From: Breznakia blatticola
GTDB taxonomy: Bacteria > Bacillota_I > Bacilli_A > Erysipelotrichales > Erysipelotrichaceae
DNA: 32,000 nt
Reading direction: 5' to 3'
Assembly (NCBI RefSeq): GCF_004365815.1
Contig: NZ_SODD01000006.1
Location: 38,929-70,928 of the forward strand
Shown: positions 11,710-27,744 of the stretch, piece after piece
How positions within the stretch are numbered: the first letter of the stretch is position 1
Layout of the letters: every line of letters starts with the position of its first letter
Made by a program: the position numbers and the translations under genes
Notes under the pieces: generated by a model
Told to the model about the DNA's origin: nothing
Database searches by the model: none
The model's input: only the letters and a program-made list of their open reading frames with translations

Positions 11710-14631
11710 TTATTTCTTTTTCTTTAAAATCAGGATCATCAAAATACCTGCACCTGTAGTAATCAACATATTCATAAAGTGTAATACATCATTCACATCA
11801 CCTGTATCAGGTGAATGCACTTGCGTGTTTGTTTCTTTCGTACTCGATGTATTTACTTGCTTATTCGTATTTGAATTGTTTGGATTTTCAGTGTTTGGAG
11901 TTGATGGATTTTCAATATTTGGATTTGTTGGTTTTTCATCAGGATTTGTTGGTTTTTCAACACTAGGATCTTTTGGCTTATCTGAAGGTTGTTCAATAAC
12001 AAGTTCTCCTTCTTTTACTAAAAGGATTGGTTGTCCATCAAGTGCTAGATGAATATTTTGTCCTTCATCAATGAACCATGTCGCTGTCTTTGCATGTTCT
12101 CCAAATACAGTTAATCCTGTGCTTGTTTCATGTTTAAAGTTTTCAGTATTTCCATCCCATGCAATGATAGTCCCTTCATTTAGCGGTTGTGTATCTAGAC
12201 AATCAATAACATCCTCTTGAGTAGCTCCTTTTCCAATAAGATAGCCATCTTTTGCGATTTTGATAGATGATGTATCGCTTGCTGAAAGCGCGACTCCAGA
12301 TGCATTGATGATACCACCCTCTATGATGAATTCTCCTTCAACGTTCACTAATGAATCTGTTGTTTGACCAATCCATTGTCCTTTTGCATATAATTTTGCA
12401 CCTTCATCAATAAAAACGGAATATGGTTGCTTAATTACTCCAGTAACTTCAAAGAACACCTCTGTATCACCTGTATAATCAAGGACATAAATATCAGCTT
12501 CTTCATTTTCTTGATTGCTTGCTTCTCTTTGGATACCACCAACCGAAACATTTCCATCGATATTAATCCCACCAAGTAAAACAGCATGTCCTTCCTTCTG
12601 TTTTTTGTAAACAATTCCATCAACTTTCACATTAACATTACCACTAGCAGCAACACCTGTATTACCAGCAACAATATCTCCAGACACGTAAATTGTTGTC
12701 ATCCTATCACTATCATCATTTTCACATGAGATACCAACACTCAGTGCATGAACATCTCCACCCACATGAAGCGTTCCATTTTTATTTGTACCTCCTCCAA
12801 CAAAACAGTTTGTAATTGAGCCATTAACTACAACAGTTGCTTCATCATCTACTAAAACACCATTTACATAGTGGTTTTGATTATTATCAACCATTTGACC
12901 ATCAATATGATTCACTTCAACATATGCATTGCTTGATGCTTGCACAATATAGACTTCATCATTACCCTCGTATTTCAAATCCACACCATGTTCACCTGTA
13001 TAAGTAAAACTGAAATCATCAAATACCGCTAGCAAACTGTTCAGTTCATATTTATATTTTGATGTATCGATACGGATATTGTTTTGATATACACCTTCAT
13101 ACATAGTTGATTCATACGTACCTATAGCAACTGGATGCTTTTCTGCCATATTTGGACTACAGACAGTAATCACTACATCTGTATAATCTTGTCCTTTTAT
13201 AGCTTCTTGTACATCTTGAATTGAGTGATATTCATATGTATCGCCCTCTCCTATATCAAATTCTCCTATTTTCGTTTGTTTTTCTTTCATCAATAATACA
13301 TCATTATATGTTATCCACATATTACCATCTGCTTGTTCTTTCCAAACAACAGTATTTGCATCTTGACCAAACATAACGATTCCTTCTTGTGAATTTTCAG
13401 TTTTGGGATTTTTATTTTTCCCATCTACTGCAATAATTACACCTTGATTCGTAACACTTTTGGCGTTGATTACATCCTTTTGTGTAATTCCACTACCAAC
13501 TAATATACTGCCACTTTCCAACATTACATCTGCATCTTTTGATACAATAGCTTTCCCTTTTGAATTTGATAACATTCCATGATAGGTGAAACTTCCAGTA
13601 CCATCTATCTCAATTAATGCACCTACTTTATCTCCAACTACATCTCCATAAAATGTTACATGACTTTCTTTGGTGTAGTCAAATATCAATGCTTGCATAT
13701 CATTCGTTTCTAAATCGAAAACTAAGGTAACATTACTTCCTCCAACACGAACATTTTCATGTCGATTCAAATTCTGTAGTCCCTTTGCTTTAATATAAAC
13801 CTCCACATCGTCTTCAGTTATATCCATAAGCATTTCAGAATTAGTCTTTACTTCTCCACGCACTTCAATGTCAATTGAACTTCTGGCTTCAACAACAAAT
13901 GCATCAAGTGACATGTCTCCATATATCAAAACATTTGCCTTTTCTCCTGCGGTTGACTCGCTGGTATTGATACCTCGTTTACATTTTAGTATATTTCCTT
14001 TTACAACAACCTTCATATCACTTGTGTATTTAGATAAATTCATAGCCGTACGAACAAACGAAATATCTTTTTCAATTATTACACTTGCTTGATTATTTGC
14101 TAATACACCGATACGGACTTTTTCACTTTGGTTATTATCTTGAATTCCTTTAACATCAAGCAAACGAATACTTGATGAATCATAAGCTTTTACTGCTGCT
14201 AGACCTTCATCTACCATTGCTACACGAACACCATGTTCTCCTACATAGTCAAATGTAGAATCATCTTTCATTGTAATTCCAGCTTGAAGAATCATTTCAA
14301 AATCCGTTGTATCAATTACCACGTGTTTCAATTTTCGAAACGACATTTTTACATTTTGTCTCATAATTGCAGGTTGATCCACAACTTTAACTTTAATTGA
14401 TACATATTTGTTGTTGTTTGCATCAACAAGTATGTCTTGTAATTCATCAAATTCTGTAGAACTTCCAATTTCATATTCCTTATCATAAATTACTTGATCT
14501 TGTTGAATCTCTACCTCATGGTTTAAGACGACTGCTTCTTTTCTTAGTGTTGCTTGTACTGGCATAATTGACATTACAAAAACTACCATTACTAAAACAA
14601 CACGTAAACAAATTTTTAGTTTTCTAATCAT
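11710..14631 (-). CDS. Sortase-anchored cell-surface protein, paralog A (two-module, beta-solenoid-like, no recognisable domain)
   Basis: 973 aa. Signal peptide ...SIMPVQA/T, a Pro/Asn/Thr-rich wall-spanning linker, the sorting motif SPDTG (11800-11814), then a hydrophobic helix and a KKKK tail. SD GAGGAAGG. Confidence 0.85.
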   Translation of the reverse strand: MIRKLKICLRVVLVMVVFVMSIMPVQATLRKEAVVLNHEVEIQQDQVIYDKEYEIGSSTEFDELQDILVDANNNKYVSIKVKVVDQPAIMRQNVKMSFRKLKHVVIDTTDFEMILQAGITMKDDSTFDYVGEHGVRVAMVDEGLAAVKAYDSSSIRLLDVKGIQDNNQSEKVRIGVLANNQASVIIEKDISFVRTAMNLSKYTSDMKVVVKGNILKCKRGINTSESTAGEKANVLIYGDMSLDAFVVEARSSIDIEVRGEVKTNSEMLMDITEDDVEVYIKAKGLQNLNRHENVRVGGSNVTLVFDLETNDMQALIFDYTKESHVTFYGDVVGDKVGALIEIDGTGSFTYHGMLSNSKGKAIVSKDADVMLESGSILVGSGITQKDVINAKSVTNQGVIIAVDGKNKNPKTENSQEGIVMFGQDANTVVWKEQADGNMWITYNDVLLMKEKQTKIGEFDIGEGDTYEYHSIQDVQEAIKGQDYTDVVITVCSPNMAEKHPVAIGTYESTMYEGVYQNNIRIDTSKYKYELNSLLAVFDDFSFTYTGEHGVDLKYEGNDEVYIVQASSNAYVEVNHIDGQMVDNNQNHYVNGVLVDDEATVVVNGSITNCFVGGGTNKNGTLHVGGDVHALSVGISCENDDSDRMTTIYVSGDIVAGNTGVAASGNVNVKVDGIVYKKQKEGHAVLLGGINIDGNVSVGGIQREASNQENEEADIYVLDYTGDTEVFFEVTGVIKQPYSVFIDEGAKLYAKGQWIGQTTDSLVNVEGEFIIEGGIINASGVALSASDTSSIKIAKDGYLIGKGATQEDVIDCLDTQPLNEGTIIAWDGNTENFKHETSTGLTVFGEHAKTATWFIDEGQNIHLALDGQPILLVKEGELVIEQPSDKPKDPSVEKPTNPDEKPTNPNIENPSTPNTENPNNSNTNKQVNTSSTKETNTQVHSPDTGDVNDVLHFMNMLITTGAGILMILILKKKK

Positions 14632-14845: not shown

Positions 14846-17728
14846 TTAATTAGATTTTATTGTGTTGTTCTTCTTTAGAATAAATAAGATGAGCGCACTA
14901 GCAACTACAATCAAGTTAACCCAATATACTGCATTTGTTGTATCACCAGTTTCTGGTGAAGTACCTGTAATCACAACATTAGATTCCGTTGGATTTTTAA
15001 CGTTTGAATCTGTTTGATTTTCACCATTTGGATTTATTGGTTTATCAACATTAGGATCTTTTGGCTTATCTGAAGGTTGTTCAACTACAAGTTCTCCTTC
15101 TTTCACTAAAAGAATTGGCTGTCCATCAAGTGCTAGATGAATGTTTTCACCTTCATCAACAAACCATGTCACTTTCTTAGCATGCTTTCCAAATACTGTT
15201 AAGCCTATACTTGTTGCATGTTTAAGGTTTTCTGTATTTCCATTCCATGCAATAATGGTTCCTTCATTTTGTAATTGTGCATCTAGACAATCAATAACAT
15301 CTTCTTGTGTACTTCCTTTTCCAATAAGATAGCCATCTTTTGCGATTTTGATAGATGCAGTGTCACTTGCAAAAAGTGCAGTTCCTAACGTATTAATAAT
15401 TCCTCCATCTACAATTAACTCACCTTCTCCATCAACTTCTACTAAAGAAGCAGTTGTTTGCCCAAACCATTGTCCTACCGCATTAAGTTTCGCATCGCCA
15501 TCAATCAAAATTGTAATTGGTTTCTCAATTGTATTTTTAATATCTAAATTTACATTCGTATTATCAATGAAATCATACACATGAATATCTGCATTGTCTT
15601 CATTCTCACTTGTTATTTCTCTTTCAATACCACCAACAGAAACATAAGCATTAATGTTCTCTCCAGCAAGTTCGAGTGCACTGCGTCCGCTTGTGTATAT
15701 GATTCCACCAACTTCTACATTCACATTTCCATTAGCAAATACGCCAAGATCACCTGCTGTGATATTACCATGTAGATATGCACTTGGTGTCTTTTGAGTA
15801 TGATCATTAACAATATAAAGAGCTGTTTCTATTGCATCAAGATTACCCAAAATATCTAACTGTGCTTCATCTTGAATATAACAACCAACTGTCGCATTTG
15901 AAACTGATCCATTAACAACTACATTTGCTTTTTGATTTGCTGTGATTGCAACAGCAAATACATTTTGTCCATCATCGAAGATTTGACTATCGATATGATT
16001 CACTTCAATATACGCATTTCCTGTCGCAAGTACATGATTAAAATCTTTATTGTTTTTATACTTTAAGTCAACTCCATGATCACCTGTATATGTAAAACGA
16101 AATTCATCATAAACATGTAAAATGTTATGCAATTCATACTTGTATTTTGAAGTATCAATGCTCACATTCGTTTGATAGCCTAGATACGGATGAGTCGATT
16201 CCTCACTACTCAATACAATTTGTTCTTGTTCCACCATGTTTGGGCTACATACTTTAATAATCGTATCTGTGTAATTTAGTGACTTTGTAGCTTCAAGCAC
16301 TTCTTGAATCGAATGATATTCATATTCATCACCTAATCCTATACTAAATTCTCCGATATTTTGTGGATTTACTTCTTTTTCTTTCATCAATGGAACATCT
16401 TTATATGTTAACCACATACTTCCATCTGCTTGTTTTTTCCATACAACATCTTTTGCATTTGTTCCAAATACTGTCACTCCATCTTGGGAATTCTCAGTTT
16501 TTTCACTTTTGTATTCTTCATCTACAGCAACAATAACACCATTGTTTGTAACACCTTTCGCTTGAATTATATCTTCTTGTGTATTTCCTATACCAACTAG
16601 GACACTTTCATCTTCAAGTATTACATCAACACCATTTGCTTTTAGTGTACTCCCTTTTTGATTTATCATTGTTCCAGCATAGGTTAAGCTTCCTTCACCT
16701 TCTACTTCAATTAATGAACCAGCTTTGCTTCCAATAAAATCTCCATATAGTACCAAATGACTTTCATCTTCAAACTCTATTTCGAATCTACTCTTAGTAT
16801 ACATTTCTAAGTCTAAATCTAGTGTAATATTGTTTCCATTAAAACGAATACGCTCGGTATCATTTACACTATATAGCTGTTTTGCTTTTATTCTGATATC
16901 AATATCATCACCATATACACTCATAAGTGTTCCAGAATTAACTTTTGCTTCACCAAGTATTTCTACATCAAAAGAGCATCTAAAGTCAAAAACAAAAGCT
17001 TCACTCGAAACATCTCCATGAACTAAAACTCGAGCTCTTTCTCCTGGTACATTATCTGTAGCATTAATACCATAGTTACAGTCATGAATGCTACCTTTTA
17101 CTTCAAGATATGTTGTATTTGTATTATCAGTAAAATATACAGCATTCCAAAAGAATGAAATATCCCCTTCTATGGTTGCTTGCGCATCATCATATAGTTG
17201 AACTCCAAATTGAATGGGTTTCGCTTGTATGTAGTTTTCATTTCCTTGCACATGCAAAAGACGTACTTTAGCAGAATTACTGATATTTACAGCCGTTTGA
17301 AAACCTTCTAGCAAGTGTACACTTACTCCATGTTCTCCCTCATAGTCAAATACAACATCTCCTTTAACATGAAGTTCGTTTTGAATGATCATTGCAAAGT
17401 TTGTAGTATCAATAACCACATGCTTTAATTTTGAACTGTTAATATTCACCATCTTGGTCATCATTGCAGTTTGATCAATTACATTTACTTTAATAGATGT
17501 GTAGTCATTAACAACTGCATCATTGATAATATCTTGCAATTCCATAAACTCAGTTGCACTTCCTAGCTCATATTCCTTATCATAAGCTATTTGATTGTTT
17601 TGAACAGCAGGTTCTCGATTTGAAGTAATTGTTTGTTTTTTTAAAGTCCCTTGTACTGGCACTATCGATATCGAAACAATCACAACAATTAAAACCGCAT
17701 AAAGGTATGTTTTTAGTTTTCTCATCAT
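14846..17728 (-). CDS. Sortase-anchored cell-surface protein, paralog B
   Basis: The ORF track runs to 17788, but the SD GGAAAGAGGAG precedes ATGATG at 17728, and alignment with paralog A (MIRKLK vs MMRKLK) supports this start. It has the signal peptide ...SIVPVQG/T and SPETG (14945-14959) followed by a TM helix and a basic tail. Confidence 0.85.
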   Translation of the reverse strand: MMRKLKTYLYAVLIVVIVSISIVPVQGTLKKQTITSNREPAVQNNQIAYDKEYELGSATEFMELQDIINDAVVNDYTSIKVNVIDQTAMMTKMVNINSSKLKHVVIDTTNFAMIIQNELHVKGDVVFDYEGEHGVSVHLLEGFQTAVNISNSAKVRLLHVQGNENYIQAKPIQFGVQLYDDAQATIEGDISFFWNAVYFTDNTNTTYLEVKGSIHDCNYGINATDNVPGERARVLVHGDVSSEAFVFDFRCSFDVEILGEAKVNSGTLMSVYGDDIDIRIKAKQLYSVNDTERIRFNGNNITLDLDLEMYTKSRFEIEFEDESHLVLYGDFIGSKAGSLIEVEGEGSLTYAGTMINQKGSTLKANGVDVILEDESVLVGIGNTQEDIIQAKGVTNNGVIVAVDEEYKSEKTENSQDGVTVFGTNAKDVVWKKQADGSMWLTYKDVPLMKEKEVNPQNIGEFSIGLGDEYEYHSIQEVLEATKSLNYTDTIIKVCSPNMVEQEQIVLSSEESTHPYLGYQTNVSIDTSKYKYELHNILHVYDEFRFTYTGDHGVDLKYKNNKDFNHVLATGNAYIEVNHIDSQIFDDGQNVFAVAITANQKANVVVNGSVSNATVGCYIQDEAQLDILGNLDAIETALYIVNDHTQKTPSAYLHGNITAGDLGVFANGNVNVEVGGIIYTSGRSALELAGENINAYVSVGGIEREITSENEDNADIHVYDFIDNTNVNLDIKNTIEKPITILIDGDAKLNAVGQWFGQTTASLVEVDGEGELIVDGGIINTLGTALFASDTASIKIAKDGYLIGKGSTQEDVIDCLDAQLQNEGTIIAWNGNTENLKHATSIGLTVFGKHAKKVTWFVDEGENIHLALDGQPILLVKEGELVVEQPSDKPKDPNVDKPINPNGENQTDSNVKNPTESNVVITGTSPETGDTTNAVYWVNLIVVASALILFILKKNNTIKSN

Positions 17729-17802
17729 TTTCTCCTCTTTCCAAAAACACACATACACAAAATAGTGTTCCATACAAATAGATTGCACAAAACAGTGTAT
17801 AA

Positions 17803-17911: not shown

Positions 17912-19081
17912 TTAGAAACAACGCTTATAAATTTCAAACACATCATTTGCTTCTAGTGTTTCGTATCCACCGATTTTACCACCTGGACGTGACTTAACAC
18001 ACTCTTCAGCAAGTTCTTTAAAATTTGCATCATTTGGAATACCTAATTCTGCAAAATTCTTTGGTAGTTTCATTGTAACAGTGAAAAATTCATATAACTT
18101 TTGAATTCCTTTTTGCGCACACTTATACGTGTTTTCTTCTTCAACATTAAATACTTCTCTTGCAAAGCGTGCAATACGATCTTTGTTCGTATCATTCAAT
18201 ATATAAGATAACCAAGCTGGTTCTAATAATGCGAGTGTTGCACCATGTGTTACATCATAGTATGCACTTAAAATATGTTGCATTGCATGACAGCTCCAGT
18301 TCTTCCCTGGACCTGATACTAAAAATCCATTGATTGCCCATGTTGATGCCCACATAATATTTGCACGTGCTTCATAATGATTCGGTTCATCTAGTAATAC
18401 TGGACCATACTTTACACATGTCTTCAACAAATCAATCGCTACTTGGTCAGAAATATCACATCCAGCTTCATGATGGAAAAATGTTTCCATGATATGTGAC
18501 ATGATATCTGCTACACCTGATGCGCTTTGAAATGCATTTACAGTATAGGTATATGTTGGATCACAAATGCTAACTTTTGGAAATAGTAAATCATTAGCAA
18601 ACCCTTTTTTACTTTTTGTCTCTGGATTTGTGATAACTGCTGTTTGATCCATTTCACTTCCTGTTGCACTTAATGTAAGTACAGAAATAATAGGCAAAGC
18701 TGCTTTAATCTTTTTCGCATCTAAGATTAGTTCCCATGCATCTTCATCAGAGCAAGCTCCTGCTGCAATTGCTTTTGATGCATCAAGTACACTACCTCCT
18801 CCGACTGCAAGAACTACATCAATATTATGTGTTTTACATAGTTCTACACCTTTTCGTACAGATGCAATGCGTGGGTTTGGTTCAATTCCATTACACTCCA
18901 CAATCGTGCAGTCAGCTAGTAAATTATAGACTTTGTCATACAGTCCTAGTTTTTTTATACTACCTCCACCATACACAAGTAGAACGCGTTTACCAACACT
19001 TGCGACTTCTTCAGGCAAGTGTTGAACTTGATTTTCTCCAAAATGGATTTTCGTTGGGACATAATACGTAAAATTCTTCAT
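17912..19081 (-). CDS. Iron-containing (group III) alcohol dehydrogenase, butanol dehydrogenase/YqhD-like
   Basis: YGGGSIKK, AVGGGSVLDASKAIA, and His-rich metal-site contexts (DIMSHIMETFFH, HAMQH, HGATLA). The ATG at 19081 lies 6 nt after the SD GAGGTG. The GTG at 19090 used by the ORF track is part of that SD. Confidence 0.9.
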   Translation of the reverse strand: MKNFTYYVPTKIHFGENQVQHLPEEVASVGKRVLLVYGGGSIKKLGLYDKVYNLLADCTIVECNGIEPNPRIASVRKGVELCKTHNIDVVLAVGGGSVLDASKAIAAGACSDEDAWELILDAKKIKAALPIISVLTLSATGSEMDQTAVITNPETKSKKGFANDLLFPKVSICDPTYTYTVNAFQSASGVADIMSHIMETFFHHEAGCDISDQVAIDLLKTCVKYGPVLLDEPNHYEARANIMWASTWAINGFLVSGPGKNWSCHAMQHILSAYYDVTHGATLALLEPAWLSYILNDTNKDRIARFAREVFNVEEENTYKCAQKGIQKLYEFFTVTMKLPKNFAELGIPNDANFKELAEECVKSRPGGKIGGYETLEANDVFEIYKRCF

Positions 19082-19177
19082 ATGTTTCACCTCGTTATAT
19101 CTTCATTATAGAATAAATGTTCTTGATATTCTATGAAGATAAAAATGTTCTGCCATAAAGACAAAACACTTTTTCGT

Positions 19178-20014
19178 TTAGTATTGTAAATTTGGATCGA
19201 AAAATCCGATAAGTACTCCAATAAAAGCAATAACAACCAATAACAACATCACTTTTAATGGTGATATTTTCTTCTTGGCTAGTAAATACCAACAGAATAC
19301 AATCACACCAGCTGATAAGAATCCTGGATATACACTATCAAATGTATCTTGTAGCACTAAGAAAGGTTCTTCTGCTCCAGCTGCAGTCATGGTAAATGCA
19401 GTTTTAACAGATACCCAACTTGCTGCTACAGCACCAATAACAATTGCTCCTAACATTGTGATAGATTCACGAATCGCTTCACCTTTTTCACCAACTAAGA
19501 ATTCAACTGCTTTTCCACCTAAATCATATCCTTTATTGAAAATAAATCTCATACCAAAATATGCAAATAAGTTCCAAACAATAATATAGAATATTGCACC
19601 TAGTGGTGATCCACCTGTTGACATCCCCATCGCAATACCAAGTAAGATTGGAATTACAGTTCCAACTACTAATGAATCTCCGATTCCTGCGATTGGTCCC
19701 ATAAGACCTGCACGTAGACCGTTTATTGCTTCATCATCCACATCCTCTGTTCCTGCAGCACGCGCTTCTTCTAAACCAGCTGTAATCCCAACAATAACTG
19801 CTCCTAATTGAGGTTCTGTATTAAAGAATGCAGTATACGTATGAATCGCTTTTAATTGTTCTTCTTTTGTATCATACAGTTCTTCAACAATTGGTAACAT
19901 TGCACATAAGTATCCAAATGTTTGCATATGTTCTTGTGAGAAACACGTTAAGTTACCGTAGTACCATTTATGAAATGACTTTGTTAGTGTCTTTTTTGAA
20001 ATTTTCTTATTCAT
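19178..20014 (-). CDS. PTS mannose/fructose/sorbose-family IID component
   Basis: 278 aa. The N-terminus KSFHKWYYGNLTCFSQEHMQTFGY and FNTEPQLG are typical of ManZ-type IID. Confidence 0.9.
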   Translation of the reverse strand: MNKKISKKTLTKSFHKWYYGNLTCFSQEHMQTFGYLCAMLPIVEELYDTKEEQLKAIHTYTAFFNTEPQLGAVIVGITAGLEEARAAGTEDVDDEAINGLRAGLMGPIAGIGDSLVVGTVIPILLGIAMGMSTGGSPLGAIFYIIVWNLFAYFGMRFIFNKGYDLGGKAVEFLVGEKGEAIRESITMLGAIVIGAVAASWVSVKTAFTMTAAGAEEPFLVLQDTFDSVYPGFLSAGVIVFCWYLLAKKKISPLKVMLLLVVIAFIGVLIGFFDPNLQY

Positions 20015-20854
20015 TTAAATATCCTCCTCATCATCTACATCAATACTTCCTGATGCTTTTTTGGTAATCATCACCATTTTGATGCGGTAGTTAATAATTG
20101 CAAATGTTCCTGCAATTACAGTTGCTGAAACCAAGTTAATTCCTAACGAAGCAGCTAACGTAAACCCAAGGAAGAACATTACAAAATCTGATGCTTTAAC
20201 AACAATTTGTTTTAGTAAAATTGCAATCCCAACACAAGGTAAAAGAGATCCAACTGTAAACAGTGTTTTCATTGCTAGTCCATCCATTGGTAAGTATTCT
20301 TTAATTAAATCAACCATTGGTGCCCCCATTTTACACATAATTAATACGGGAATGAATGAACAAATGATATGAGAAATCCATGGTAATACATAGTTTACAA
20401 TGTTTAATTTGCTTAAATCCCCATCTTCAACGGACTTCCATCCAATATGTTGCCATACAAGGTTAATGGTTGCAGTTCCATAGAATAATACAGTCCCTAA
20501 TGTTCCAACCATGGTTCCAAATGATGCTGCAAGTGATTGTCCATCTAAAGATGCTGCATCTAATCCATAACTTTTTAATGCGATCATCGCTAGTGGAATT
20601 CCAATGTAACTAACTGCACGTACATCTGCAGATACTGTCCCTCCTGGCGTTACGAGTGCAATATACACCAACTGCATCGCAATCCCAACTAAAATTCCTG
20701 ATTGAATATCTCCTAATACAACTCCACATACTAAACCACCAATTAATGGTCTTCCTAGTGTGTAGTTACCAAAAGATGTTCCTCCTAGTCCTGGCATACT
20801 TGATAAACAGGCAAATAAACCAAGTATAGCCGCTTGTAACCAACTAATTTCCAT
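20015..20854 (-). CDS. PTS mannose/fructose/sorbose-family IIC component
   Basis: 279 aa polytopic protein directly abutting IID. RPLIGGLVCGVVLGD is typical of ManY-type IIC. Confidence 0.9.
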   Translation of the reverse strand: MEISWLQAAILGLFACLSSMPGLGGTSFGNYTLGRPLIGGLVCGVVLGDIQSGILVGIAMQLVYIALVTPGGTVSADVRAVSYIGIPLAMIALKSYGLDAASLDGQSLAASFGTMVGTLGTVLFYGTATINLVWQHIGWKSVEDGDLSKLNIVNYVLPWISHIICSFIPVLIMCKMGAPMVDLIKEYLPMDGLAMKTLFTVGSLLPCVGIAILLKQIVVKASDFVMFFLGFTLAASLGINLVSATVIAGTFAIINYRIKMVMITKKASGSIDVDDEEDI

Positions 20855-20880
20855 ACTCTAAACCCTCTTTTCTTTCTTTA

Positions 20881-21372
20881 TTAATAACCAAATTTACTTT
20901 TAAAGTTTGACCATGCACCAATAGATACATCAGGTAGTAGCGAAAACTCTACTGCATATCCTGCTTTTTCTATTGCTTCTAAACAGTCCGCTTCTATTTG
21001 TGTAATACTTTGATTATTTCCTAATTTAACTGCATTTTCTCGATCATTACATGGTCCAACAATTACATTGTTGATACCTGGTTGAAAACCTAAATCTACC
21101 AAGATTCGTTTCATATCAACTGGATCCTTACAAATCAAGAAATACTTTGTATCGCTTTCCAATACCTTTTGACATTTCTTTTCAAATTCTTCCATTGTCC
21201 AAACAAATGTCTTTTTTCCACTCGCAGATTTATATGCTGCTTTTAAAATATCGTTATTTGCTGCTTTGTCATTAACTGCAATCAACCCATCACATGGGTA
21301 TTCAAGAGCCCAACGTGTACAAGTTTGACCATGAATCATGCGGTCATCTACTCTAATAAATGTAACTGCCAT
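20881..21372 (-). CDS. PTS mannose-family IIB component
   Basis: IRVDDRMIHGQ phospho-histidine motif, 163 aa. Confidence 0.9.
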   Translation of the reverse strand: MAVTFIRVDDRMIHGQTCTRWALEYPCDGLIAVNDKAANNDILKAAYKSASGKKTFVWTMEEFEKKCQKVLESDTKYFLICKDPVDMKRILVDLGFQPGINNVIVGPCNDRENAVKLGNNQSITQIEADCLEAIEKAGYAVEFSLLPDVSIGAWSNFKSKFGY

Positions 21373-21384
21373 CTTTTTTACCTC

Positions 21385-21807
21385 CTAAATGTCTTCTTCT
21401 TCATCTACAACAAATGAGAATTGTCGTAATCCTGCACTTGCTTCTTGCAAAACTTGATCAACTAATTCTTGTCCATGATAGGTATCTTTCATCAATGCCG
21501 TCGTCAATACTAAAGGCAAATTCATTCCACCAATAACAACTAGATTTTGACTCAATCCATGTTCACTTAATATGCTCATCGCTGTTGTTAATGGCGAGCC
21601 ACCAATTAAATCACCAACCAATACAACTGCATCTTCAGGATGAATATCACAAATTGCTTCTTTCATTAATATGGTAAAATCATCAATTCCTTTTCCATCC
21701 TCTAGCCCGATTGCTAGACACTCTTTTTTATCTCCAACAAGCATTGTTAATGCATTTTTTAACCCACTAGCAAACTGCCCATGAGATACCATAATCAAGT
21801 AGTTCAT
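21385..21807 (-). CDS. PTS mannose-family IIA component
   Basis: MNYLIMVSHGQFASG is the active-site His context. The ATG at 21807 follows the SD GAGGGA, and the track start at 21819 overlaps that SD. Confidence 0.85.
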   Translation of the reverse strand: MNYLIMVSHGQFASGLKNALTMLVGDKKECLAIGLEDGKGIDDFTILMKEAICDIHPEDAVVLVGDLIGGSPLTTAMSILSEHGLSQNLVVIGGMNLPLVLTTALMKDTYHGQELVDQVLQEASAGLRQFSFVVDEEEDI

Positions 21808-21908
21808 CTTGTCCCTCATTTCTATTACACTTGCATTCTAGCAAGAAAGCCCTTTCATTCCATCTGCACATTGTCACTACTTTTATATGAATTTTTCACA
21901 ATTAGAAA

Positions 21909-21920
21909 TGACATTTGTCA
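21909..21920. promoter_or_regulatory. Palindrome TGACATTTGTCA upstream of the PTS operon (candidate response-regulator site)
   Basis: Perfect 5-bp inverted half-sites with a 2-bp spacer, followed by CAAAAAAATAG. A near-identical element is at 26245-26267, and an extra TGTCAC half-site is at 21872-21877. Confidence 0.4.
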
Positions 21921-21948
21921 CAAAAAAATAGCATAGCTTTTCGCCATA

Positions 21949-23256
21949 CTATTCTTTTAAATATTTATTAATTTCCTTTTGTAGTCGAATAAGTGCAATA
22001 TCGATATCTTCACTATTCATCATTATTTGTTGTAGTCTTGTATCAATAAGAGCTCGAGCAGACTCATACTTTTTAAATTGACTATGTGAAGTTGTATCCT
22101 CCATAACATCCGTTAACATACTTAAATTTACCATTCCTTCTTCATTCTCAATTTGAATGGCTTCGATTGTTTCACTCGATTCTGTCACGGATCTAAGTGG
22201 AGAAATTCCTTGTGAGTTTTTAATTAAATGAAGTTGTGTATTTTCATCATATGATAACTTCTTCAAAAACTTCCAAGCAACATCTTCATGATTTGTTCTT
22301 GTTGACATTCCTAATAGCATCGTAGATGTTTCTGAATTGCCACTGTTTGCATCAACAGAAGGCATTTTTAAACAATCCCATTCAAAGTTTGAATATTTTT
22401 TTACGCGCCATGGATATGGTTTATACGTTCGATATTGTGAGAGTTGCATCGGTGAAAATGCAACTTTCCCTTTATCAAAATCTTCAGCTGTGACAGTATT
22501 TCCTTGATGCAAATCCATCAGTTTCTTTGCATATATAATTGATTCTTTCACACGATCTTCGCCAACGTAACACTCTTGTCCATCTTCATCAAACAGTTCT
22601 ACAGAATGTGCAAACATGGAATCTAACCAATCATAGTCATAACACCCATACTGATCCACGTTTCCATCGCCATCTATATCTTTTGTGACCTGTTTTGCAA
22701 TTGTATACAAGTCATCAAGCGTCCATTCGTTATTTGGTATAGCTATACCTTCCTTTTCCAATAGCGTTTTATTCACAAACATTAATGTTGGATTACTCTC
22801 AAATGGTAATGCATATTGTTTATCTTGATAGACACCAAAATCTAGTGCACTCTTGTAGTATTTATCTGTATCAAAACTTTGATCTTCTTCCACTAGAGTA
22901 TTCAAGTTTTTAAGAACACCTAGTGAACTAAACGTATTAAAATCTTCATTTAATACGACAAACACGTCCGGTTCATTACCTTGTACAATTTGATTCGATA
23001 ACCATAAAGAGTAATCCTCTTTTAAAACTCCACTATCGTATTCAATTTGCACATTTGGATTTTCTTTTTCAAATGCAGCAATCGCTTCATCTATCACTTC
23101 ATATGTTTTTCCACTTGGTACATCCCAGTTACTTCCTGCAAATATACCTAAGCGAATCACGATTGGTTGATTGTATGTATAAACACCAAAGATTACCCCA
23201 CCAACAAGTAATGCACATACAAGTAATAGCTTCACTTTATTGCGCTTCATCTTCAA
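21949..23256 (-). CDS. Family-1 (MalE-like) extracellular solute-binding protein, membrane-tethered, orphan
   Basis: 435 aa. It has an N-terminal TM anchor without a canonical lipobox, and IRLGIFAGSNW...PDVFVV...ALPFESNP are typical of carbohydrate SBP_bac_1 proteins. It overlaps the RR gene by 20 nt. Confidence 0.85.
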   Translation of the reverse strand: MKMKRNKVKLLLVCALLVGGVIFGVYTYNQPIVIRLGIFAGSNWDVPSGKTYEVIDEAIAAFEKENPNVQIEYDSGVLKEDYSLWLSNQIVQGNEPDVFVVLNEDFNTFSSLGVLKNLNTLVEEDQSFDTDKYYKSALDFGVYQDKQYALPFESNPTLMFVNKTLLEKEGIAIPNNEWTLDDLYTIAKQVTKDIDGDGNVDQYGCYDYDWLDSMFAHSVELFDEDGQECYVGEDRVKESIIYAKKLMDLHQGNTVTAEDFDKGKVAFSPMQLSQYRTYKPYPWRVKKYSNFEWDCLKMPSVDANSGNSETSTMLLGMSTRTNHEDVAWKFLKKLSYDENTQLHLIKNSQGISPLRSVTESSETIEAIQIENEEGMVNLSMLTDVMEDTTSHSQFKKYESARALIDTRLQQIMMNSEDIDIALIRLQKEINKYLKE

Positions 23257-23914
23257 AATCCTTTAGTGTATGTCCATTTTGAACTGCCCAAATGGCAAGT
23301 TGTGTGCGATCTCGAAGATTCAACTTAGATAATATCGAACTCAGATAATTCCTTACAGTTCCTTCAGATAAATATAGCTTTGCAGCAATTTCTTTATTTG
23401 ATAAGCCAAATGCAACTTGTTGAATGACTCTCCATTCCGGTTTTGCAATATCTTTGGTATATGTTTCATCTACTTGAATGGTGTAATTGTTTTTTGACAT
23501 CTTAGAAAACACACCAAATACTTTTGTTGCGATATCTGGATTGATCATTGCACCACCTTGATTCACGGTACATATAGCATGATAGAGTTCATCCATCCCG
23601 ACTCCTTTAAGTAGATATCCGCTGGCTCCATATGCAAGTGCACTAAAAACAAACTCATCATCAAAGGTTGTAAGAATAATAATTTTTGTATCAGGATATA
23701 ACGTTTTCACTTCTTTTGTACAAACCACACCATCCATATTGGGCATACGAATATCCATAAGAATAATGTCTGCTTGTTTATGTTGTAATTGTTCTAAGAC
23801 ATCCAATCCATCACAGGCAACTCCTATAACTTCTAAGTCTTCATGTGTTTTTAAAACAATCGAAAGTGATTCGCGAATTAACTCCTGATCATCTGCGATG
23901 AGTACTTTAATCAT
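23237..23914 (-). CDS. NarL/FixJ (LuxR-type HTH) response regulator
   Basis: Receiver domain motifs VLIADDQ...ILMDIRMPNMDG. The C-terminal HTH is LSNKEIAAKLYLSEGTVRNYLSSILSKL. Confidence 0.92.
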   Translation of the reverse strand: MIKVLIADDQELIRESLSIVLKTHEDLEVIGVACDGLDVLEQLQHKQADIILMDIRMPNMDGVVCTKEVKTLYPDTKIIILTTFDDEFVFSALAYGASGYLLKGVGMDELYHAICTVNQGGAMINPDIATKVFGVFSKMSKNNYTIQVDETYTKDIAKPEWRVIQQVAFGLSNKEIAAKLYLSEGTVRNYLSSILSKLNLRDRTQLAIWAVQNGHTLKDFEDEAQ

Positions 23915-25211
23915 AATGCTCTCCTTTCTGAATTGGGATTTTTACTATTGTAAGAAATCCATTTGCTCCATCAAAGTGAATTTCTCCACCAATGATAACG
24001 ACACGTTCCATCATTTGTCGTAATCCAAATCCATATTTTATTTCTTTACAACCGACTCCGTTATCTTGCATTTCCATATAGACAAAATTTTCTTTTTGAT
24101 ATAAATGAATATCTATCTTGGTAGCACCACCATGACGCATCGCATTGGTAATACTTTCCTGGATAATACGAAACAATACATCTTCTTTAGCTTTTTCAAA
24201 ATCGATATTTTCTAAATTGTAGTGTAAATCTACTTGCAAATGTGATACTCCTGTAACCTCTTCAATCATTTGCTCAATTGCACCTTTTAGATTTTGATGT
24301 TCTAAAGCTCCTGGTCTTAGTTTATTAAGTGAATTACGAACATCTCCAATTCCTTGACGAACGACCTTTGAAACGATATGCAGTTGCTTCTTTGTTTGCT
24401 CTGTATTGATATCAATCATTGCAATACACGCATCAATTCCTGCTGCAATACCTGTAAGTGCATGACCTAGCGTATCATGTATTTCACGTGCCAAGCGTTT
24501 ACGTTCATTATTTTCACCGACCTTCTCAATCGCAAGTGAGTAATTTGTCAATTCACGATTGACTTGGTGAATCATATCAAGTTCATGCGCAATACGTTCA
24601 TTTTCCTGTATTTGATTTGCAATATACACAATGATAAAGCTTATAAATAAAAGTAAGTTAAATGTTTCCATTACATTTTTTAAAATCATCAATACACTTC
24701 TAACATTTGCTTCATAAATCGCAAAATATGCAGAAGGCGAACTCATCTTAAGAAACACAGAAGAAATATCATAATTGGTAAACAAGAATATGATGATAAG
24801 TGATACAAGTAAACCACGAGAGAATTTATCTTTCATATGATATATCGAATCACAGAACACTAAAAATAAGATTCCGTTATATCCCATGTTTAACATGTAT
24901 ATTAAAGAAAAACTAACACCAACTAGTGCAATATTATATAATGCATGGTTCTTCTTTTGCTTCTTATGATAGGTTCTTGTATACATAAACCCAATTAAAA
25001 CAAAATACAACAACAAAGATCCAAAATATAGAAAAACTGGATTTTTAGGAATGTATGTAATACGGTCTAAAAACTCTCGTGCCATCTGATTATCAACGAT
25101 GTATTTTGTGCCAAGCAAATAAGTAGATGCATAAAATAACACAATAATAAAATTGAGAATTGTCATGATATTACGTATGGTCGATAGTGAAGTGAAATAA
25201 TTACGTTTCAT
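23907..25211 (-). CDS. Polytopic sensor histidine kinase, HisKA_3 class
   Basis: About 200 aa of TM segments joined by short loops, the H-box REIHDTLGHALTGI, the N-box NAMRHG, and DNGVGC, GFGLRQM. The ATG at 25211 follows the SD GGGTGG and overlaps the upstream stop as TAATG. The GTG at 25220 is the alternative start. Confidence 0.9.
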   Translation of the reverse strand: MKRNYFTSLSTIRNIMTILNFIIVLFYASTYLLGTKYIVDNQMAREFLDRITYIPKNPVFLYFGSLLLYFVLIGFMYTRTYHKKQKKNHALYNIALVGVSFSLIYMLNMGYNGILFLVFCDSIYHMKDKFSRGLLVSLIIIFLFTNYDISSVFLKMSSPSAYFAIYEANVRSVLMILKNVMETFNLLLFISFIIVYIANQIQENERIAHELDMIHQVNRELTNYSLAIEKVGENNERKRLAREIHDTLGHALTGIAAGIDACIAMIDINTEQTKKQLHIVSKVVRQGIGDVRNSLNKLRPGALEHQNLKGAIEQMIEEVTGVSHLQVDLHYNLENIDFEKAKEDVLFRIIQESITNAMRHGGATKIDIHLYQKENFVYMEMQDNGVGCKEIKYGFGLRQMMERVVIIGGEIHFDGANGFLTIVKIPIQKGEHYD

Positions 25212-26164
25212 TATTGCCACCCTTTTTCATCAAAGTTATGAATGTTATCCTTTGTGATAAGAGTTACAGGAACAACAATTAACTTTTCCTCTTTATGTTG
25301 TAAACAGTTATACATTTGTTCAGCTGCAGCTTTACCTAAGGTAATTGGAGACTGTGCCACGGTTCCTAAAACCATTTCATTACTCATTAATAATGATTTT
25401 ACATCTGGTGTTCCATCAACTCCATAAACTTTCACATCACTTCTTTGATTGCTTTCAAGTGCTGCAATTGCACCAAGTGCACTTGGATCATTTAATGCCA
25501 TCACGACTTGTACCTCAGGAGTTTCTTTTAGCATTTCGTCCATCATTGGCATTGTACGTTCTAGTTGTCCTTCACATTCTCTTTCATTTATAATTTTATA
25601 ATTCTCATGACCTTCAATCGTTGCTAGAAATCCATCAATACGATCCTTTGCAGAACGGGCAGCAGTATGTTTAAGCAAAATAATATTTGCATGTTCCATT
25701 TTGGACATCATATCTTTTGCACATTGAACACCTGCATCATAATTATCAGATACCACGGTTACATCTACAACATCTTCATTCAACAAAGGTGCATCAACTG
25801 CTACAATTGCAATACCTGCCTTACTTGCTGCAAGCAGTTCTTCATCAATTGAGTCAGCATCTACAGGGTTAATAAAAATACCATCTACTTTTGCATCAAT
25901 AAAATATTGAATTTGTTCCTTTTGCTTATCTACATGTAGTGCTGGATCAAGGGTTATCAAAACATCACCATTTTGTTCGATGACTTTACGCATTTCATTA
26001 TTGATCACTTCATAAAATGGATTATTCATCGTCATATAGCTCACACCAAAAACAAGGTTTCGTGTTGTAGGTTTTTTATATTCCCCATACACAAATCCAA
26101 TCATCGTAAGACATACAGCGATAGTCACAAAACTTGCTATGATTTTCTTATATTTCATAGTCAC
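25211..26164 (-). CDS. Type-I periplasmic-binding-fold sugar-binding protein (RbsB/XylF-like), membrane-tethered, orphan
   Basis: 317 aa. It has an N-terminal TM anchor, and NPFYEVI, DGIFINPVD, VVSDNYDAG and ALNDPSALGA are typical of Peripla_BP_4/RbsB-type proteins. Confidence 0.85.
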   Translation of the reverse strand: MTMKYKKIIASFVTIAVCLTMIGFVYGEYKKPTTRNLVFGVSYMTMNNPFYEVINNEMRKVIEQNGDVLITLDPALHVDKQKEQIQYFIDAKVDGIFINPVDADSIDEELLAASKAGIAIVAVDAPLLNEDVVDVTVVSDNYDAGVQCAKDMMSKMEHANIILLKHTAARSAKDRIDGFLATIEGHENYKIINERECEGQLERTMPMMDEMLKETPEVQVVMALNDPSALGAIAALESNQRSDVKVYGVDGTPDVKSLLMSNEMVLGTVAQSPITLGKAAAEQMYNCLQHKEEKLIVVPVTLITKDNIHNFDEKGWQ

Positions 26165-26244: not shown

Positions 26245-26256
26245 TGACAAATGTCA
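26245..26256. promoter_or_regulatory. Palindrome TGACAAATGTCA in the sensor-operon/araC divergent intergenic region
   Basis: It has the same half-sites and the same 3' flank (CAAAAATAG) as 21909-21931. An extra TGTCAC half-site is at 26230-26235. Confidence 0.4.
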
Positions 26257-26462
26257 CAAAAATAGTTGATAGTCTATCATACACATAAAACCCTAACAAC
26301 TTTAAAAAACATGAAACCTTATAGTCTACTATATAAATGTAATTAACAACCTCATGCCATTCATCTTACATCGTATATATGCTCTCTAATAATTATGCAA
26401 GAAGAGCGGACAAAGTGTATGCAACGGTTTATAATTAGATATATAGAAAAAGGAGTTCATTT

Positions 26463-27341
26463 ATGGAGTGGATAGAAAATTTGAATGCATCGATTGCCTA
26501 TATTGAAGAGCACATTACTGATTCTTTACATACTAAAGAGATTGCTAAAGTAGCAAGTTGTTCAACATATCATTATCAAAGAATATTTGCTTATATGACA
26601 GGAATTCCACTATCCGAATATATTCGTCGTAGAAGAATGTCTTTAGCAGTAGTTGATTTGAAAAACACAGATATGAAAATCATAGATATTGCTTTGAAAT
26701 ATGGATATAACTCGCCAACTGCATTTAACCGTGCCTTTCAAAGTGTTCATGGAATTGCACCATCATTAGTTAAAGATGAAGGAGTGCGTGAAAAATCATA
26801 TCCTGCACTAACCTTTCAAATGAATATACAAGGAACAGAAAGTTTAGATTTTAGAATCGAAAGCAAAAAAGCATTTCGTGTAATTGGATCATCTATTGCT
26901 CTTCATGGTGAATTTAAAAGCATGGATGAACCTGTCAAACAAATATGGGAAAAGTGCGAAAAGGATGGCACAATTCAAACACTAATGCAATTAGCAAATA
27001 GAGATTCATCGAATATATTAGAAGTCATGATACCGGATACATATACAGAAAATTGGAAATATATGATCGCAGTTGAAACAGATGATCCCACTAATACTCA
27101 ACTAGAAGAATATACAGTTGAATCTTATACATGGGCAGTTTTCTCTTATGAAGGTAAAACTGCAGAAGAAGCGCAAAGGATAGGAAATCGTATCATTTAT
27201 GAGTGGTTACCTACAAGTGGATATGAATATGATAACGGACCAGATATTTCTGTTCATACATATATAGATGGAAAACGAACCATACTTGAATATTGGTTGC
27301 CAATAAAAAATAAACAACAAGCGAGGATATGTAATGATTGA
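26463..27341 (+). CDS. AraC-family transcriptional regulator with a GyrI-like effector-binding domain
   Basis: The N-terminal HTH_18 pattern is IAKVASCSTYHYQRIFAYMTGIPLSEYIRRRRM...YGYNSPTAFNRAFQSVHG, followed by a ~150 aa GyrI-like/SOUL-type domain. The promoter is cGGACA-17-TATAAT and the SD is AAAGGAG. Confidence 0.9.
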   Translation: MEWIENLNASIAYIEEHITDSLHTKEIAKVASCSTYHYQRIFAYMTGIPLSEYIRRRRMSLAVVDLKNTDMKIIDIALKYGYNSPTAFNRAFQSVHGIAPSLVKDEGVREKSYPALTFQMNIQGTESLDFRIESKKAFRVIGSSIALHGEFKSMDEPVKQIWEKCEKDGTIQTLMQLANRDSSNILEVMIPDTYTENWKYMIAVETDDPTNTQLEEYTVESYTWAVFSYEGKTAEEAQRIGNRIIYEWLPTSGYEYDNGPDISVHTYIDGKRTILEYWLPIKNKQQARICND

Positions 27342-27744
27342 TTTTAAAAAAGACAAAAACATAGAACCAACGGATGATAATCTTAAGATTGTACTGAAAG
27401 ACAGTTTTCTAGCATATAAAGAATTAACAGAGAAATTGTCTGATTTTAATGTAAATCTTGAATGGCGTTTTTACAAAGATGGGGGTTGGCTTGCAAAAGC
27501 TACTCACAAAAAGAAAACTATATTTTGGGGACAAGCAATGAGTGATTGTTTTCTTGTTGCCTTTCACTTTAATAAAAAAACCATTCAAGGTGTTTATGAT
27601 CTAAATATCGCAGAAACATTCAAACAAGAATTATTACAGGCTCAAAATGATGAAAGTAAATTCACTTCACTACGATTAAAAGTAGTAAACTCAAAGTCTT
27701 TACCTAATATTTATCAGTTGATTGAATATAAGTGTAAAGTTTAG
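27334..27744 (+). CDS. DUF3788-like small protein
   Basis: 136 aa. LEWRFYKDGGWLAKATHKKKTIFWGQAMSDCFLVAFHF resembles the DUF3788 pattern from memory. It overlaps araC by 8 nt. Confidence 0.55.
   Translation: MIDFKKDKNIEPTDDNLKIVLKDSFLAYKELTEKLSDFNVNLEWRFYKDGGWLAKATHKKKTIFWGQAMSDCFLVAFHFNKKTIQGVYDLNIAETFKQELLQAQNDESKFTSLRLKVVNSKSLPNIYQLIEYKCKV

Follow-up and report, generated by a model that had tools for sequence, protein, structure and literature searches.

What do two sugar-binding proteins do in an operon that encodes no transporter? The question is raised by a 32-kb stretch of the Breznakia blatticola genome (contig NZ_SODD01000006.1, positions 38,929 to 70,928; G+C content 33.6%), called the window here and analyzed at its full length, in which four overlapping open reading frames (ORFs) on the minus strand encode, in the direction of transcription, a Peripla_BP_4 protein, a HisKA_3 kinase, a REC+LuxR response regulator and an SBP_bac_1 protein. 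A first-pass annotation, made from the letters of the DNA, had placed these ORFs at 21949-26164, named their domain classes and proposed that the binding proteins serve as co-sensors of a NarL-class pair that controls the adjacent phosphotransferase system (PTS). All four ORFs are present, Pfam and NCBIfam profile searches bear the classes out, and full-length homology to all four Lev proteins of Streptococcus mutans supports the proposal: the cluster is very probably the B. blatticola orthologue of S. mutans LevQRST, whose genes are transcribed in the order levT-levS-levR-levQ, along with levDEFG, its target operon. The sensor genes are the following:

25211..26158, minus strand: levT orthologue, a co-sensor of 315 aa anchored by a transmembrane (TM) segment, Peripla_BP_4 (RbsB-like); alternative start GTG 26164
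23907..25211, minus strand: levS orthologue, a 6-TM sensor kinase of 434 aa, HisKA_3 + HATPase_c
23237..23914, minus strand: levR orthologue, a NarL/LuxR-class response regulator of 225 aa
21949..23250, minus strand: levQ orthologue, a TM-anchored SBP_bac_1 co-sensor of 433 aa; alternative start TTG 23256

Two of the overlaps read from the sequence are as first described: TAATG at 25213-25209 joins the first binding protein to the kinase (stop TAA 25213-25211, kinase ATG 25211-25209), and ATGATTAA at 23914-23907 is shared by the kinase and regulator genes. The third, between the regulator and the levQ-like gene, had been put at 20 nt, a length that holds only if translation starts at TTG 23256; from ATG 23250 the overlap is 14 nt (23237-23250). 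This ATG has a Shine-Dalgarno sequence, AAAGGA, 8 nt upstream and lines up with the N-terminus of LevQ in S. mutans, which reads MKMIKK (numbered from the second Met in the publication), and the shorter overlap is therefore preferred. For the first gene, ATG 26158, which has AGGTG 5 nt upstream, is a more likely start than GTG 26164.

LevQRST was reportedly first described in S. mutans by Zeng, Wen and Burne in 2006, and again by Zeng, Das and Burne in 2011. The S. mutans locus, which was not among the 80 reference-genome loci, was pulled from metagenome contigs by an exact match to a published levT primer. This reference locus (L087) carries all seven published lev primers, mismatches being confined to primers with engineered restriction sites, and its proteins have 14 of the 14 residues named in the lev literature at exactly the stated positions: C12, D72 and C149 of LevT; L202 and I253 of LevS; and C161, E170, C188, D202, Y254, F261, F292, C296 and C336 of LevQ (PMC3043104). 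With seven primers and 14 residues in place, L087 is the authentic S. mutans lev locus. Measured against it, the four Breznakia proteins align one to one: the first binding protein with LevT (40.3% identity over residues 1-315; E 2e-81), the kinase with LevS (39.6% over residues 13-432, TM region included; E 4e-112), the regulator with LevR (66.5% over its full length; E 9e-114) and the fourth protein with LevQ (44.1% over residues 28-432; E 2e-125). The likeness extends to the output, as PTS subunits IIA, IIB, IIC and IID are 46, 72, 72 and 71% identical to LevD, LevE, LevF and LevG, respectively.

What is known of the S. mutans system fits this anatomy closely. There, levTSRQ form an operon with levDEFG directly downstream and the products are called a "four-component system"; a transmembrane domain is predicted to hold both LevQ and LevT in the membrane, LevS, with as many as five TM domains, exposes limited parts to the outside, and no functional ABC (ATP-binding cassette) transporter is encoded nearby (PMC3043104). 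Activation of fruA and levDEFG by fructose or mannose needs all four proteins; LevR binds the levD and fruA promoters, LevQ is surface-exposed and essential, and LevT tunes specificity and can give a negative signal (PMC3043104). A functional equivalent of S. mutans UA159 LevQRST and levDEFGX has been reported in S. gordonii. The Breznakia locus has in common with these the gene order followed by a Man-family PTS, the Peripla_BP_4, polytopic HisKA_3, NarL-class and SBP_bac_1 components, the TM anchors on both binding proteins, the overlapping coding regions, the lack of an ABC transporter and the TGACA-NN-TGTCA boxes in the PTS promoter.

The kinase is built as the annotation had it, with a polytopic N-terminal part and short loops. 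Six hydrophobic helices occupy residues ~1-200, joined by external loops of at most ~22 residues according to hydropathy. The AlphaFold model agrees, its low confidence (mean pLDDT 63.5, pTM 0.41) restricting its use to the helix count; it too has six helices, the last of which continues into the DHp domain. HisKA_3 (E 2e-17) and HATPase_c follow, with the phospho-acceptor His245 in a REIHD motif. It is the cytoplasmic core alone that matches solved structures (DesK, VraS), and the top NCBIfam match of this core, UhpB, is likewise limited to residues 194-429. A search of 1.84 billion proteins with the TM module by itself gives 178 cluster representatives, most of them 430-450 aa long, and the module thus marks a distinct, fairly small family. 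The regulator has the Pfam domains Response_reg and GerE.

Both binding proteins begin with a single hydrophobic segment that runs on past a Cys and has no canonical lipobox, so that the N-terminal hydropathy upholds the earlier view of a TM anchor in place of a lipid one. The first is a Peripla_BP_4 protein (PF13407; E 6e-44) whose best NCBIfam match is RbsB; in structure searches its nearest chains are ribose-binding proteins, followed at a greater distance by the sensor domain of BT1754 (2x7x, E 3e-14) and by XylFII (5xsj, E 6e-11). The fourth belongs to SBP_bac_1/SBP_bac_8 (PF01547/PF13416), with a weak match to MalE, and its nearest structures are Lmo0181 and an arabino-oligosaccharide-binding protein. 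Those searches returned no solved structure of any relative of LevT, LevQ or LevS. Residues D72 and C149 of S. mutans LevT are kept in the window protein as D71 and C146, and LevQ E170 and F292, which are altered in a constitutive mutant, are kept as E167 and F289.

The second half of the system lies just downstream of the sensor genes, and its features, together with the regulatory signals on both sides of the sensor operon, are these:

19178..21819, minus strand: mannose-family PTS operon, levDEFG orthologue (Pfam EIIA-man, PTSIIB_sorb, EII-Sor, EIID-AGA)
21385-21819, minus strand: PTS IIA; ATG 21807 is the likelier start
20881-21372, minus strand: PTS IIB
20015-20854, minus strand: PTS IIC
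19178-20014, minus strand: PTS IID
21865..21921, minus strand: operator region of the PTS promoter, with an exact box, GTGACAAATGTCA, at 21921-21909, a degenerate middle site and a proximal TGACA half-site at 21876-21865
21921..21959, minus strand: intrinsic terminator hairpin with a U-run behind it, overlapping the stop codon of the levQ-like gene (-18.8 kcal/mol, z = -8.0, 0/200 shuffles as good)
26245..26257, minus strand: putative LevR operator box, GTGACATTTGTCA, which precedes the sensor operon by ~100 nt, in flanking sequence shared with the PTS promoter

The terminator was missed by a consensus terminator scan and was shown by direct folding of the RNA; since it separates the levQ-like gene from the PTS promoter, the locus comprises two transcription units, as in S. 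mutans. What, then, could tie the two units together? A 13-mer, GTGACAWWTGTCA, occurs in two exact copies in the 32 kb, against 0.03 expected, and both copies lie in promoters. The PTS copy (21909-21921) is ~100 nt upstream of the IIA gene; the proximal half-site overlaps the -35 position, and an extended -10 (TGCTAGAAT) is found at 21843-21835. A half-site at about -35 combined with an extended -10 would be the typical layout of an activator-dependent promoter.

The same palindrome accompanies the PTS throughout the family. All 60 loci for which the region upstream of IIA is available, S. mutans among them, have TGACA-NN-TGTCA there with at most two mismatches; 56 of the 60 have an exact copy within 160 nt, and the box usually stands 100-112 nt before the start codon, with additional copies downstream at a phasing of ~21-22 nt (in S. 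mutans levD the sites are at -112, -91 and -67). These PTS promoters hold 74 exact boxes in 9.6 kb, against 20 in the other 1.1 Mb. The palindrome is probably the LevR operator. As a binding site for CcpA it was rejected: the consensus of the CcpA cre site has a central CG, which the palindrome does not, and the palindrome accompanies lev promoters across phyla. An exact or near-exact box also precedes the first sensor gene in 30/72 loci, which suggests positive autoregulation in that part of the family, and the box at 26245..26257 suggests the same for Breznakia. Exact copies stand 5' of the sensor operon in some Erysipelotrichales (L025, L029, L037, L038, L040, L043-L047); none was found upstream of levT in S. 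mutans (L087) or in the other streptococci examined (L054-L074). Two loci carry a gene for a large FruA-like GH32 fructanase directly 5' of the sensor genes (L010, 1871-6880; L073, 1814-6040), one enzyme with FIVAR domains and the other with an LPXTG anchor, and TGACA-NN-TGTCA boxes precede each gene. The boxes in front of these genes agree with the published finding that LevR binds the fruA promoter, and they connect the family with the use of fructans in species other than S. mutans.

How widely is this arrangement kept? The kinase is identical to a protein annotated from B. blatticola, and full-length homologues of it, 50-62% identical, occur in Longibaculum, Massilimicrobiota, Erysipelatoclostridium and Megamonas, and three annotated relatives share a layout of Peripla_BP_4 protein, kinase, regulator, SBP_bac_1 protein, four PTS genes, an ~88-aa protein and a HAD hydrolase, with no sugar ABC transporter. 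A scan restricted to one genome per species gave 69 loci with a kinase match covering the TM region, drawn from Erysipelotrichales, Megamonas, Enterococcus pseudoavium, Floricoccus, Lactobacillus, Ligilactobacillus and ~20 Streptococcus genomes; the three annotated relatives bring the set to 72. The four sensor genes stand in the same order in 68 of the 72, across several orders and two phyla. A PTS follows directly in 57/72, with a levX-like small gene after IID in 51 of these 57; most of the remaining loci are on contigs that end too early.

Two groups of loci deserve separate mention. The complete cassette is found in Megamonas, a diderm Negativicute, where it lies next to lpt genes (L003, L022, L023), and in Enterococcus pseudoavium (L009); its proteins there are 51-79% identical to those of Breznakia, as close as many from Erysipelotrichales, a distribution that points to horizontal spread among gut Firmicutes. 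Conversely, the locus of Erysipelotrichaceae bacterium MTC7 (L019, 7018-11278) is the sole one with room for a PTS yet none present: its sensor genes are followed by a tagG/tagH-type ABC-2 exporter and teichoic-acid synthesis genes, and its target operon must be elsewhere or lost.

How would such a system work in Breznakia? In the model proposed here, the LevT-like (type-I, RbsB fold) and LevQ-like (SBP family 1) proteins would face outward, each held by one N-terminal TM helix, and would sense a sugar outside the cell, with fructose, mannose or a related hexose as the likeliest candidates. Fructose or mannose is the best guess for the ligand because IIB, IIC and IID are 71-72% identical to LevEFG. 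The binding proteins would then pass the signal to the LevS-like kinase, presumably through contacts with its 6-TM bundle, given that its external loops are short; in S. mutans, insertions with an effect on signaling cluster in TM helices 4-6 of the kinase. The kinase would phosphorylate the NarL-class regulator, which would bind the phased TGACA-NN-TGTCA boxes and activate the mannose-family PTS operon, and probably the sensor operon as well.

Several observations weigh against a straightforward transfer of the S. mutans scheme to Breznakia. Ligand specificity may not be the same, since the Breznakia binding proteins share just 40-44% identity with LevT and LevQ, and the TM region of the Breznakia kinase, whose AlphaFold model is of low confidence, is ~26% identical to that of LevS. 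The assignment of the palindrome to LevR is putative. Gene content differs too: levX and the HAD phosphatase carried by most relatives, and found next to the lev operon in S. mutans, are absent, and an Fe-dependent alcohol dehydrogenase (Fe-ADH) stands there instead. No levX match was obtained by tblastn in the window; levX is an accessory trait, outside the sensor proper. The window likewise contains no GH32 fructanase and hence no fruA, the operator box 5' of the sensor operon is present in Breznakia and not in S. mutans or the other streptococcal loci examined, and the host, one of the Erysipelotrichales, lives in the insect gut.

Some of these differences could be read as a rewiring of LevQRST, in which the system is positively autoregulated through a LevR box of its own that S. 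mutans lacks, its output also includes a YqhD-like aldehyde reductase and perhaps two sortase-anchored surface proteins of ~975 aa, and the two unrelated binding proteins recognize different ligands, which are integrated by the 6-TM kinase. Such a rewired version is possible, albeit unlikely. Integration of two ligands by AND/OR logic had been raised in the annotation; in S. mutans, genetics assigns unequal roles to the two binding proteins. The reductase gene in question is:

17912..19090, minus strand: Fe-dependent alcohol dehydrogenase, YqhD-like (Pfam Fe-ADH; NCBIfam PRK15138, E 5e-83, under the curated cut-off)

This gene occupies the slot in which most relatives have levX and a HAD/S6PP sugar-phosphatase, and the swap may be a lineage-specific change in the output of a lev-type operon. 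The gap between IID and the dehydrogenase is 87 nt, with no terminator predicted in between; the dehydrogenase is possibly co-transcribed with the PTS and would then belong to the same regulon. Directly downstream of the PTS and dehydrogenase, on the same strand and with no predicted terminator between, are two genes (11710-14631 and 14846-17788, both minus) for paralogous ~975-aa proteins that are 53% identical and have no Pfam match. The protein of 14846-17788 has an N-terminal signal/TM segment and, at its C-terminus, a sortase-like signal (variant SPETG, hydrophobic stretch, basic tail). On the other side, divergent from the sensor operon at 26463-27744 (plus strand), are genes for an AraC/GyrI-like (Rob-type) regulator and a DUF3788 protein, with no evident lev-like link.

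Might the parts be those of LevQRST and the roles different? The 6-TM kinase could read PTS activity or the state of the membrane, with the binding proteins acting mainly as scaffolds or inhibitors, like YycH and YycI for YycG. Several points lend themselves to this reading. The title of the 2006 lev paper speaks of a feedback loop; no report of ligand binding by LevQ or LevT was found in the lev literature searched; and in S. mutans LevR-dependent expression responds to PTS components and to seryl-phosphorylated HPr, while the TM anchor of LevT gives a negative signal by itself (PMC3043104). However, point mutations in LevQ (E170A/F292S, C161A) alter the inducing sugars (PMC3043104), which argues for ligand recognition; E170 and F292 are among the residues kept in the Breznakia protein, and the binding domains of both proteins are intact and full length in all relatives examined. 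A scaffold role in place of sensing is thus quite doubtful, and the LevQRST scheme with ligand-binding co-sensors is retained.

If not as scaffolds, could the binding proteins simply serve import? The two come from families in which ABC-transport receptors predominate, a CUT1 system may use a distal ATPase in common with others, and the view of this genome extends over 32 kb; the permease and ATPase could then be encoded elsewhere, with the adjacency to a two-component system being incidental or a matter of mere co-regulation. The window itself, as the annotation had held, contains no ABC permease or ATPase according to Pfam searches of 32 of its 36 ORFs of at least 100 aa (three of the other four are antisense, nested inside annotated genes), and an ABC ATPase probe found no match by tblastn over the window. 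Nor do orthologous clusters always sit beside cognate permeases, an outcome that would have spoken for transport. Pfam scans of the 106 ORFs pooled from within 5 kb of the core cluster at 18 diverse loci found no cognate sugar ABC importer; the recurrent neighbors were HAD/S6PP phosphatases (7-8 ORFs) and GH32 hydrolases (2 ORFs), with ABC_tran in four ORFs and BPD_transp_2 in two. ABC ATPase matches lie near 10/72 loci, and every one inspected belongs to an unrelated system. Five were ruled out as partners on inspection: LptB in Megamonas, TagGH teichoic-acid export (L019), an exporter (L058), an amino-acid importer (L068) and, in L027, a Bmp/PnrA-type system that has a binding protein of its own. 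The hallmark of a canonical CUT1/CUT2 importer, a binding protein clustered with its permease and ATPase, was found neither in the window nor as a recurring neighborhood in the relatives. The four overlapping genes keep a fixed order at 68/72 loci, and in S. mutans the orthologues are needed for signaling and fructose and mannose enter through PTS systems only (PMC3043104). An ordinary receptor for import is accordingly a highly improbable role for either protein, and both are best regarded as LevT- and LevQ-type co-sensors.

Least tenable of all, with next to no probability left, is the notion that this sensor architecture had no experimental precedent and was uncharacterized until now: XylFII-LytS-YesN and HptASR do differ from it in kinase and regulator classes, and the XylFII match is distant, but LevQRST has the same four domain architectures, the same gene order and the same PTS as target, and each of its proteins has a homologue in the window, so the annotation's statement that no characterized example was at hand is refuted. 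Also too narrow was its view that precedents for such co-sensors come with LytS/AraC-type partners, because LevS is classed as HPK7 and LevR as a member of the NarL family (PMC3353171).

Some other sugar sensors resemble the Breznakia LevQRST orthologue in part. XylFII-LytS-YesN of Clostridium beijerinckii and HptA-HptS-HptR of Staphylococcus aureus likewise pair a transporter-less ABC-type co-sensor with a membrane kinase and sugar uptake genes; they have one binding protein, a LytS/YesM-type kinase and an AraC-type regulator, whereas Breznakia has two binding proteins and a HisKA_3/NarL pair (the Pfam classes of its kinase and regulator are HisKA_3 and GerE/LuxR). UhpABC of Escherichia coli also combines a polytopic HisKA_3 kinase, a NarL-class regulator and a separate membrane co-sensor, and induces a sugar-phosphate transporter; its co-sensor UhpC, however, is not a binding protein but a homologue of major facilitator superfamily transporters, and its TM modules are unrelated to that of the Breznakia kinase. 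BT1754 of Bacteroides thetaiotaomicron (PDB 2x7x), which binds fructose and controls fructan utilization, uses the type-I periplasmic-binding-protein fold as a sensor, as does the first protein of the window; in BT1754, unlike in Breznakia, the binding domain is fused to a hybrid kinase in a single polypeptide with an AraC-type output.

What does the identification mean? In itself the result is ordinary: a system described in 2006 is extended to another genus. The LevQRST family nevertheless extends far beyond the few species listed in 2011 and is common in gut Erysipelotrichales, and the phased palindrome array provides a candidate LevR operator and, with it, a candidate regulon, GH32 fructanase genes included. 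Because no member of the family has a solved structure, the many orthologues offer material for structural work on how two binding proteins may signal through a kinase that has almost no external surface.

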